Part shown: one piece after another, positions 5,184 to 43,236 of the stretch | Layout of the letters: the number at the start of each line of letters is the position of its first letter | Position numbering within the stretch: the first letter of the stretch is position 1 | Assembly (NCBI RefSeq): GCF_013315695.1 | Contig: NZ_CP054353.1 | DNA length: 64,000 nt | Direction: 5' to 3' (one strand) | Origin: Escherichia coli | GTDB lineage: Bacteria; Pseudomonadota; Gammaproteobacteria; Enterobacterales; Enterobacteriaceae | Notes under the pieces: generated by a model | Databases searched by the model: none | Told to the model about the DNA's origin: nothing | The model's input: only the letters and a program-made list of their open reading frames with translations | Program-made: the position numbers and the translations under genes

Positions 5184-6170
5184 ATGATACGTTTCGCTGT
5201 GATTGGTACGAACTGGATCACTCGCCAGTTCGTCGAGGCCGCCCATGAGAGCGGTAAATACAAGTTAACTGCCGTTTATTCCCGCAGTCTTGAACAGGCC
5301 CAGCACTTCGCCAATGATTTTTCTGTCGAGCATCTGTTTACGTCGCTGGAAGCGATGGCAGAAAGCGATGCCATTGACGCGGTGTATATTGCCAGCCCGA
5401 ATTCCCTGTACTTTTCCCAGACACAACTTTTCCTTAGTCACAAAATTCATGTGATTTGCGAGAAGCCACTGGCGTCGAATCTGGCGGAAGTGGATGCCGC
5501 CATTGCCTGTGCGCGGGAAAATCAGGTGGTGCTGTTTGAGGCATTTAAAACCGCCAGCCTGCCGAACTTTCATCTGTTGCGCCAGGCGCTGCCGAAAGTC
5601 GGCAAACTGCGTAAAGTCTTTTTCAACTATTGCCAGTATTCCTCGCGGTATCAACGTTACCTGGATGGTGAGAATCCCAACACCTTTAATCCGGCATTCT
5701 CTAACGGTTCAATTATGGATATCGGCTTTTACTGCCTGGCGTCGGCGGTGGCATTATTCGGTGAACCGAAAAGCGTGCAGGCAACCGCCAGTTTTTTGGC
5801 AAGCGGCGTAGATGCCCACGGCGTGGTGGTGATGGATTACGGTGATTTCAGCGTTACGTTGCAGCACTCAAAAGTGAGCGATTCTGTCCTGGCAAGCGAG
5901 ATTCAGGGCGAAGCAGGATCGCTGGTGATTGAAAAACTGTCTGAATGCCAGAAAGTTTGCTTTGTTCCGCGTGGCAGCCAGATGCAGGATCTCACCCAAC
6001 CGCAGCATATTAATACCATGCTCTACGAAGCAGAGCTGTTCGCTACCCTGGTGGATGAGCATCTGGTGGATCATCCAGGGCTGGCGGTCAGTCGCATCAC
6101 CGCCAAACTGCTGACCGAGATCCGCCGCCAGACTGGGGTGATTTTTCCGGCAGATAGCGTAAAACTATAA
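5184..6170 (+). CDS. ygjR: Gfo/Idh/MocA-family NAD(P)-dependent oxidoreductase
   Basis: ORF 5166..6170; start at MIRFAVIGTNWITRQF gives 328 aa; Rossmann-type N-terminus. Confidence 0.8.
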   Translation: MIRFAVIGTNWITRQFVEAAHESGKYKLTAVYSRSLEQAQHFANDFSVEHLFTSLEAMAESDAIDAVYIASPNSLYFSQTQLFLSHKIHVICEKPLASNLAEVDAAIACARENQVVLFEAFKTASLPNFHLLRQALPKVGKLRKVFFNYCQYSSRYQRYLDGENPNTFNPAFSNGSIMDIGFYCLASAVALFGEPKSVQATASFLASGVDAHGVVVMDYGDFSVTLQHSKVSDSVLASEIQGEAGSLVIEKLSECQKVCFVPRGSQMQDLTQPQHINTMLYEAELFATLVDEHLVDHPGLAVSRITAKLLTEIRRQTGVIFPADSVKL

Positions 6171-6234
6171 ATTGCCAAAGTAAAACAGTGTAAAAGGTAT
6201 GTAACAGACCATTGACTGACTGAATGGTCTGTCA

Positions 6235-6453
6235 TACTTTGTTGCCTGCAAAGGGGAGTAACTTCATTGCCGGTCGATCGTCATTACGATGTGTGAACAA
6301 CCACATCCGGTCACCGGGCAACCCGAAAGGAATACGCAGACGTATTCCTTTTTTGTTGTAAGTGAGACCTTGCCGGAAGGCGAGGTCTATGCATAAAAAG
6401 CAGCGGCTGACGTCTTCCGACGTTGGCCGTTTTTTTATGTGTAAGGAACTTCT
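6235..6453 (+). promoter_or_regulatory. alx 5' leader, the pH-responsive element / yybP-ykoY-family (Mn) riboswitch region
   Basis: About 220 nt structured, GC-rich leader directly upstream of the alx start with several hairpin-capable inverted repeats; assignment by position and established knowledge of the alx leader. Confidence 0.45.
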
Positions 6454-7419
6454 ATGAATACTGTCGGCACGCCGTTGCTATGGGGCGGATTCGCTGTTGT
6501 TGTCACCATTATGCTGGCTATCGACCTGTTGTTGCAGGGGCGTCGTGGGGCACATGCCATGACCATGAAACAAGCTGCGGCCTGGTCGCTGGTCTGGGTG
6601 ACGCTGTCGTTACTGTTTAACGCCGCTTTCTGGTGGTATCTGGTGCAAACCGAAGGTCGCGCCGTTGCCGATCCACAGGCACTGGCCTTCCTCACCGGTT
6701 ATCTGATTGAGAAATCGCTGGCGGTCGATAACGTCTTTGTCTGGCTGATGTTGTTCAGCTATTTCTCTGTTCCGGCGGCATTACAACGTCGCGTGCTGGT
6801 GTATGGCGTGCTCGGGGCGATTGTTCTGCGTACCATCATGATCTTCACTGGTAGCTGGCTGATTTCACAGTTCGACTGGATCTTGTATATCTTCGGTGCC
6901 TTCCTGCTGTTTACCGGCGTGAAGATGGCGCTCGCCCATGAAGATGAATCAGGCATTGGCGACAAGCCGCTGGTGCGCTGGCTACGCGGTCATTTGCGCA
7001 TGACCGACACCATCGACAACGAGCATTTCTTTGTGCGCAAGAATGGCTTGTTGTACGCCACGCCGCTGATGCTGGTATTGATTCTGGTGGAATTGAGCGA
7101 TGTGATTTTCGCCGTGGATAGCATTCCGGCTATCTTCGCCGTGACCACTGACCCGTTTATTGTGCTGACCTCAAACCTGTTTGCGATCCTCGGCCTGCGT
7201 GCGATGTATTTCCTGCTGGCAGGTGTGGCAGAGCGTTTCTCGATGCTCAAATATGGTCTGGCGGTGATTCTGGTGTTTATCGGTATCAAGATGCTGATTG
7301 TCGACTTCTACCATATTCCGATCGCCGTCTCGCTGGGCGTGGTGTTTGGCATTCTGGTGATGACGTTTATTATCAACGCCTGGGTGAATTATCGGCATGA
7401 TAAGCAGCGGGTTGGATGA
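6454..7419 (+). CDS. alx: TerC-family membrane protein (putative Mn exporter)
   Basis: 321-aa multi-TM ORF; recognised as Alx (YgjT). Confidence 0.9.

Positions 7420-42859: not shown

Positions 42860-43236
<377 letters not shown>

Follow-up and report, generated by a model that had tools for sequence, protein, structure and literature searches.

The ygjR-alx intergenic region of an Escherichia coli genome very probably encodes the alx PRE/SraF leader, a three-way-junction Mn2+ riboswitch of the yybP-ykoY class

The leader of the alx gene of Escherichia coli K-12, known as PRE or SraF, has been described as a Mn2+ riboswitch of the yybP-ykoY family that turns up alx translation when the pH is alkaline and Mn2+ is abundant (PMC12153347, PMC10197570, PMC9472077, PMC12934788). 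It was first found as a small RNA, SraF (PMC9472077), and in K-12 the induction of alx translation reaches ~68-fold at alkaline pH and ~20-fold with Mn2+, both effects being dependent on the PRE (PMC10197570). The aptamer is a three-way junction (3WJ) in which P2 is replaced by L2 (PMC12153347; PMC12934788); its crystal structure is available as PDB 9JGM (PMC12934788), and docking of the K-12 aptamer has been reported by smFRET. The A37U mutation abolishes the pH response of alx, and the L2 residue C19, A114 and the native L3 are all needed for pH tuning (PMC12934788), with C19 being a proposed partner in a pH-sensing C19-A114+ wobble pair. In the K-12 leader, transcription terminates at ~108 nt (site B) and ~190 nt (site D), and RNA polymerase pauses at 142-144, and again at 177, 183, and 184 (PMC9472077), while the published model has the ribosome-binding site paired to the disrupted P1.1/L1. 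Work on this element goes back to 2009 and includes a crystal structure and maps of its co-transcriptional folding. The biology that our analysis adds is little; its contribution lies rather in the comparison of this leader with its relatives, and in what that comparison says about how such leaders are annotated.

In the 64,000-nucleotide stretch of E. coli DNA analyzed here (the window), the corresponding region spans the 283 nt that separate the stop codon of ygjR (6170) from the alx ATG (6454). The upstream gene, ygjR, encodes a Gfo/Idh/MocA oxidoreductase. The product of alx has a match to Pfam TerC (PF03741) with E = 1.3e-53, and RefSeq uses for it the names "TerC family membrane protein Alx" and "Mn(2+) exporter Alx". 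The element thus occupies the 5' UTR of a metal-homeostasis and membrane-transporter gene (the TerC, MntP, and P-type ATPase families), as is expected of a member of this riboswitch class, with alx directly downstream. The locus is nearly universal in the species, as 6100-6520 is matched at an identity of at least 95% in 5419 of 5426 complete E. coli genomes, the best matches being to B2-type strains such as Nissle 1917 and ATCC 25922. In the RefSeq records of Nissle 1917 and K-12, zero features are annotated between ygjR and alx. The earlier note on this DNA had assigned the entire interval 6171-6453 to the leader. This stands for 6247-6453, which is the RNA element proper (+1 to +207, a 207-nt UTR), and has to be given up for the first 76 nt (6171-6246), which are promoter and upstream DNA: a 5' boundary at 6171 is too wide because the published residue numbers fit only with +1 = 6247, a numbering with which A11, U17, U18, C19, A20, G23, A37, A114, A115, and A137 all agree. 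The region had also been called GC-rich, which was mistaken, given a GC content of 45.9% for the intergenic region and 48.8% for the UTR, when the window averages 50.1% and the genes on either side 52-54%.

Our reading, to which we assign a probability of about 95%, is that 6247-6453 is the alx PRE/SraF leader, a three-way-junction member of the yybP-ykoY Mn2+ riboswitch class that acts as a Mn2+/pH translational switch for alx. The same locus had been proposed before to carry the alx leader with a pH-responsive element of the yybP-ykoY family, and to be known biology; both statements hold, as the sequence is 99% identical to the leader characterized experimentally in K-12, the signature boxes of the family are present, and the helices covary in 72 species. 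What our analysis demonstrates is the identity to K-12, the existence of the helices through covariation, the invariance of the metal-core residues, and the specific detection of the element by a custom model. All the experimentally important nucleotides (A11, C19, A37, A114, A115, and A137) are present, including the residues implicated in pH sensing (C19 = C6265, A114 = A6360, and A115 = A6361), and L3 does not differ from its K-12 counterpart. The features of the locus are listed in Table 1.

Table 1. Features of the ygjR-alx intergenic region and of the regulated gene (positions are those of the window).
Feature	Position	Strand	Remarks
CpxR-type box GTAAA-N5-GTAAA	6180..6194	+	centered at about -60 from +1; promoter DNA, not RNA
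Hairpin-capable palindrome	6204-6213 + 6223-6232	+	10-nt arms, 100% complementary; spans alx -35
alx promoter	6212..6240	+	-35 TTGACT 6212-6217; -10 area TGTCATACTTT 6230-6240, exact hexamer ambiguous
Mn2+ aptamer domain, three-way junction	6247..6374	+	custom covariance model, covariation, match to published 3WJ model and 9JGM
P1.1	6248-6251 with 6370-6373	+	invariant
L1 5' strand GGGGAGUAA	6253-6261	+	invariant in 72 leaders
P1.2	6261-6264 with 6360-6363	+	invariant
L2 capping loop CAUUG	6265-6269	+	
P3.1	6270-6280 with 6308-6317	+	compensatory change in 6/10 pairs
L3 UCAUUAC	6281-6287	+	A37 = 6283, invariant
P3.2	6288-6293 with 6302-6307	+	compensatory change in 5/6 pairs
P4	6318-6359	+	compensatory change in 3/5 P4-base pairs
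Inner P4 hairpin and U-tract, intrinsic termination site B (~+108)	6325..6354	+	terminator-like, 12 pairs then T-run
L1 3' strand GAGAC	6364-6368	+	invariant in 72 leaders
P5 hairpin (OFF state)	6365..6388	+	10-nt arms, 90% complementary; sequesters L1/P1.1 3' strand (GAGACCUUGC)
Alternative anti-terminator helix (ON; "P5/P6" or "C/D")	6374-6382 with 6411-6419	+	9-nt arms, 89% complementary
P6 intrinsic terminator (site D, ~+190), SraF RNA 3' end	6402..6436	+	stem 6402-6414 with 6419-6431, U-run 6430-6436
Shine-Dalgarno AAGGA; alx start codon	6443-6447; 6454-6456	+	Shine-Dalgarno paired in MFE fold
alx, regulated gene	6454..7419	+	ORF of 321 aa; TerC-family membrane protein, Mn2+ exporter

The architecture of the aptamer is that of the class in all but one respect. 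The conserved L1 internal loop lies between P1.1 and P1.2, with a GGGGAGUAG-like 5' strand and a GAGAC-like 3' strand, and is framed in the same way in the mntP leader; P3.1 and P3.2 flank a one-sided L3 that carries the Mn-contacting adenosine, the alx L3 being a variant of the consensus CAACAUAC that is 2 nt shorter. The exception is the four-way junction with P2, which is absent here: only five nucleotides (CAUUG) separate P1.2 from P3.1, and this spacing leaves no room for a P2 helix. This absence makes alx a structural variant of the yybP-ykoY class, and not a non-member. Across the 72 leaders compared, GGGGAGUA, GAGAC, and GUCA (A37 included) never change, and the invariant blocks extend to GCAAAGGGGAGUAACUU (P1.1, L1, and P1.2), GUCA..ACG (L3 with A37), GUAAGUGAGACCUUGCCG (P1.2', L1', and P1.1'), and the core of the P6 terminator.

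The description of the region as structured and hairpin-capable is well borne out, as it contains seven inverted repeats and two terminator-like hairpins (6325-6352 and 6402-6431), and the RNA 6236-6470 folds with -100.7 kcal/mol, compared to -65.7 +/- 4.7 kcal/mol for 200 dinucleotide shuffles (z = -7.4), none of which was as stable. For the comparative analysis, 80 alx loci from Enterobacterales species were fetched, and 72 distinct intact leaders were aligned. The structure expected of the ON state (aptamer plus anti-terminator) is paired in 98.2% of cells, has 17 pairs with compensatory change, and scores 0.192 for covariation, a value attained by none of 500 shuffles (0.116), with slid registers giving at most 0.047; the OFF-state structure (P5 plus P6) is paired in 95.4% of cells, with a score of 0.204. 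Structure is therefore conserved with respect to other enterobacterial alx leaders, with compensatory changes in P3.1, P3.2, P4, P6, and the anti-terminator, and RNAalifold, with no structure supplied, recovered P3.1, P3.2, P4, the P5 core, and P6. On P1.1 and P1.2, covariation is silent, speaking neither for nor against these helices, because both are invariant.

The covariance-model search through which the earlier note proposed to check the family assignment gave a different result. With the yybP-ykoY model of Rfam 15 (RF00080, gathering threshold of 45 bits), no match was obtained in the window at the gathering threshold, nor in 6000-6700 at E<=10. The same model yielded no match in the K-12 alx locus and matched 0 of 17 alx-type leaders from other genera, including some with a very short P4, while on the K-12 mntP control it scored 41.6 bits (E = 7.6e-9), just under the threshold. 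Because K-12 alx and the 17 leaders were also missed and mntP was found, the missing match is a property of the model and not of the sequence, and the RF00080 threshold, which the alx leader does not reach, is insensitive for E. coli members of the class. Two simpler accounts of the miss were rejected: RF00080 was not lacking from the scanned library, as it detected the mntP control, and it does not fail on long-P4 forms alone, as the 17 leaders that were all missed include ones with a 16-nt P4. An explanation can be found in published features of the alx element, which has no P2 (a 3WJ instead of a four-way junction), a divergent L3, and a terminator inside P4 (PMC12153347). Of the two observations that the earlier note had named as speaking against the assignment, then, one was made, the lack of an RF00080 match, but it reflects a limit of the model, and the other, a lack of conserved structure, clearly was not.

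A custom covariance model (R1), built from 65 non-Escherichia aptamers (115 positions, 29 pairs), performed very differently: it returned a single match in the 64-kb window, at 6247-6374 on the plus strand, with 117.8 bits and E = 3.9e-30, and gave the same 117.8 bits on K-12 alx, so that this leader does match a covariance model of the alx-type leaders of other genera. In the reciprocal direction, R1 run on the mntP leader with filters off gave a best score of 4.6 bits (E = 0.39), which is not significant alone, with a placement that brackets the GGGGAGUA...GAGACC shell exactly. Apart from the metal-binding shell and a common helix order, the two Mn riboswitches of E. coli have little in common that a model could align. 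One could argue from the silence of RF00080 even at E<=10, and from the weakness of the reciprocal match, that the locus merely contains ordinary terminators or chance inverted repeats with no relation to yybP-ykoY. The probability of such a scenario is practically negligible, however, in view of the stability of the fold relative to shuffles and its extensive covariation, of L1 and L3 signatures that are invariant, of a helix order that is the one seen in mntP except for P2, of the exactness with which even the weak reciprocal match frames the metal-binding shell, and of the published Mn2+ binding data and crystal structure. More generally, Rfam-based annotation misses the whole alx-type class, and a negative covariance-model scan must not be taken to mean absence. 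RNase P RNA was the sole Rfam family found in the window at the gathering threshold (rnpB, bacterial class A; 42860-43236, minus strand; 318.6 bits, E = 1.7e-103). The earlier note had called the alx leader the only clear cis-regulatory RNA of the window, and the Rfam scan, which overlooks this leader as well, turned up no further one.

Downstream of the metal-binding core, the P5 hairpin and the P6 terminator, the P5/P6 anti-terminator that competes with them, and then the Shine-Dalgarno (SD) sequence follow one another as in the expression platform of the class, all three helices being present. P5 is paired in 91.8% of cells across species and shows no compensatory change among the 72 leaders, because its core is invariant. 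P6 consists of 13 pairs followed by T7, is paired in 95.6% of cells, and has three pairs with compensatory change. The anti-terminator helix is paired in 99.4% of cells, and three of its nine pairs show compensatory change; pair 6376/6417 goes from G-C to A-U in 11 species, and pair 6378/6415 from A-U to U-A in 2 species. As these four positions are loop nucleotides of P5 and P6, their covariation is sensible only if the alternative helix forms, and the comparative alignment thus supplies clean covariation support for it. The published coordinates can be placed readily on this structure: the ~108-nt termination maps to 6354, in the U-tract 6349-6354, and the ~190-nt termination to 6436, while the pauses at 142-144 map to 6388-6390, at the 3' edge of P5, and those at 177, 183, and 184 fall inside P6. 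In the MFE fold, 6262-6264 pair with 6443-6445, and 6255-6259 with 6448-6452.

That P6 is a strong and universally conserved terminator, that ends at ~190 nt have been observed, and that the element was discovered as a small RNA would all be in keeping with a stand-alone, trans-acting sRNA of ~190 nt (SraF) as the main product of the locus, with cis control of alx being secondary. We regard this as extremely unlikely, as deletion of the PRE removes the cis regulation of alx, and a conserved helix that competes with P6 suits an expression platform, while a plain sRNA terminator would not need it. Nor is SraF known to have a trans target.

For the riboswitch reading, the binding of Mn2+, the response to pH, the positions of termination and pausing, and the read-out at translation are carried over to this leader from published work on K-12, whose element is 99% identical, and by analogy the following sequence of events is expected. 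Transcription would start at about 6247, from a sigma-70 promoter with the CpxR box upstream, and the nascent RNA would fold into the aptamer (6247-6374). An increase in cytoplasmic Mn2+, such as that occurring at alkaline pH, would turn alx translation on: Mn2+ would be held between L1 (GGGGAGUAA...GAGAC) and L3 (UCAUUAC), the helical legs would dock, and P1.1/L1 would be closed, which would leave 6374-6382 free to pair with 6411-6419, block P6, keep the SD and the AUG accessible, and allow alx to be translated. When Mn2+ is lacking (the OFF state), P5 would instead take up the 3' strand of L1/P1.1, and the P6 terminator would form; some transcripts would then stop at about +190 and yield the SraF RNA, others would extend past the terminator with their SD paired to the liberated 5' strand of L1, and in both cases alx would be off. 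The P4 terminator (~+108) would remove part of the transcripts in both states, and the choice between states would be made during transcription, at the RNA polymerase pause sites.

Polymerase pausing is central to a different proposal, the original PRE model, which portrays the leader as a pure pH sensor where alkaline pH lengthens polymerase pauses and the leader then adopts the active fold with no ligand involved. This is the earliest published model, and it is consistent with the existence of mapped pause sites and with a folding outcome that is kinetically controlled. However, alkaline pH left pause lifetimes unchanged or shortened them (PMC9472077) and is by itself unable to switch the leader, the Mn-contact mutant A37U loses the pH response, and the Mn-binding residues of L1 and L3, for which a ligand-free sensor would have no need, are invariant in 72 species. 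The pure pH-sensor model has already been largely refuted in the literature, and we consider it very unlikely for this leader as well.

Our attempt to reproduce the switch by equilibrium folding was less informative, as exposure of the SD in the ON state was not obtained by this approach across the 72 species. Enforcing P1.1 and P1.2 alone moved mean SD accessibility from 0.44 to 0.46, and enforcing the full ON versus the full OFF structure gave 0.40 versus 0.45, which is the wrong direction; in the nearest-neighbor model, the ON state is ~26 kcal/mol less stable than the OFF state. Nearest-neighbor equilibrium folding cannot model a kinetic, Mn-controlled switch, and we do not count this failure against the riboswitch mechanism, which, given the misfit, depends on kinetics and on energy from tertiary contacts and Mn2+, all outside the scope of these tools. 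The misfit agrees with the literature, where the switch is viewed as kinetic and as dependent on these same energies.

The 76 nt upstream of +1 deserve to be discussed separately. The GTAAA-N5-GTAAA direct repeat, which corresponds to the CpxR consensus, is the sole exact match in the 64-kb window, where 0.10 would be expected by chance, and is conserved as CGTAAA..GTAAA in most Enterobacteriaceae; alx is, moreover, a documented CpxR-activated gene (PMC9600279). A simple promoter scan of the sequence did not list the alx promoter; its TTGAC and TGnnATAYTTT elements are near-invariant from genus to genus and keep a constant spacing to the leader. The palindrome that surrounds the -35 element has arms that covary in 70 species (score of 0.362, against 0.204 for shuffles, with 0 of 500 reaching it, and at most 0.168 for slid registers). 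Such covariation suggests an RNA hairpin, most simply a ygjR terminator whose U-rich tail overlaps the -10 region of alx, and a 3'-end hairpin or terminator for ygjR transcripts is the probable role of 6204-6232.

Across the Enterobacterales, the alx-type leaders of Citrobacter, Klebsiella, Enterobacter, Pantoea, Serratia, Yersinia, and others share with this one the invariant L1, P1, the L2 residue G23, the L3 core, the P5 core, and P6, and maintain the P3.1/P3.2 architecture through compensatory changes. The remainder is more plastic. P4 ranges from 14 to 65 nt among the 72 leaders, being at most 20 nt in 21 of them, and an E. coli-like, terminator-like P4 is likewise found in 21 of 72. C19 (alignment column 27, window position 6265) is replaced by G in 11 leaders and by U in 2 (Pluralibacter- and Pantoea-type), and L3 occurs as UCAUUAC, UCAUGAC, UCAAUAC, or UCACUAC (columns 46-48, window positions 6284-6286), always with A37. 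The alignment thereby separates the universal parts of the element (L1, L3, the P5 core, and P6) from the lineage-specific ones (the P4 terminator and C19).

Individual loci depart further from this scheme. In E. albertii (L006:1222-1370), a REP-like insertion of ~150 nt lies within P4, and the P4 hairpin is duplicated; ERIC-like insertions inside P4 are seen in two other loci (L015 and L035, Siccibacter and Franconibacter-like). In these three loci, the 5' half of the aptamer is intact, with 100-280 nt separating it from the downstream 3' strand that is its partner, and the idea that it had been lost was rejected, as R1 finds it upstream of the repeat insertions in P4. L025, L047, and L067 (2-3 species) carry 100-130 nt of inserted sequence between P6 and the alx start codon, P3-P4 is deleted in an Atlantibacter sp. 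(L026), where GGGGAGU runs directly into the P5 region, and in Rouxiella aceris (L078) the P6 terminator alone is kept, with no aptamer.

We would tentatively propose, at somewhat less than even odds, that three-way-junction, alx-type leaders are a separately evolving subclass that is invisible to RF00080 and thus unannotated in RefSeq; that P4 is its lineage-variable part, with site B being an add-on of the Escherichia/Citrobacter/Kluyvera type and P4 itself a landing site for REP- and ERIC-like repeats; and that the alx promoter lies within a covarying hairpin, maybe a ygjR terminator, which could couple upstream transcription to alx. If this were true, the site B terminator would be absent wherever P4 is a hairpin of 5-8 bp.

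Among the known systems, the closest is K-12 alx itself, which occupies the same ygjR-alx locus and is identical to the window in its helices, both terminators, the SD, and the functionally tested nucleotides, over an intergenic region that is 99% identical. Relative to K-12, there are five differences, all of which fall outside helices and core: an extra A after the ygjR stop codon, G to A at 6219 (in the promoter spacer and palindrome loop), A to G at 6244 (-3), and A to C at both 6298 and 6301, in the apical loop of P3.2 (UGAACAAC against UGAAAAAA). The last two had been considered as possible changes in the pH-sensing loop, which was rejected, as L2 is located at 6265-6269. In K-12, U48 and A55 could form a seventh P3.2 pair, whereas the U-C combination of the window cannot; this loss would be expected to have no effect.

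The mntP leader of E. coli, the canonical four-way-junction representative of yybP-ykoY (RF00080; PDB 4Y1M, cited in PMC12153347), shares with alx the L1 shell (GGGGAGUA...GAGAC), a P3 with a one-sided L3 loop bearing the Mn-contacting adenosine, and a P4 that follows P3, and is, like alx, a translational ON switch upstream of a Mn2+ exporter gene. The two differ in that mntP has P2, where alx has a 5-nt L2; in the sequence of L3, which is UCAACAUAC in mntP and UCAUUAC in alx; in the two internal terminators and the pH response of alx, the latter being absent from mntP; and in their visibility to RF00080, which scores mntP and gives alx no score at all.
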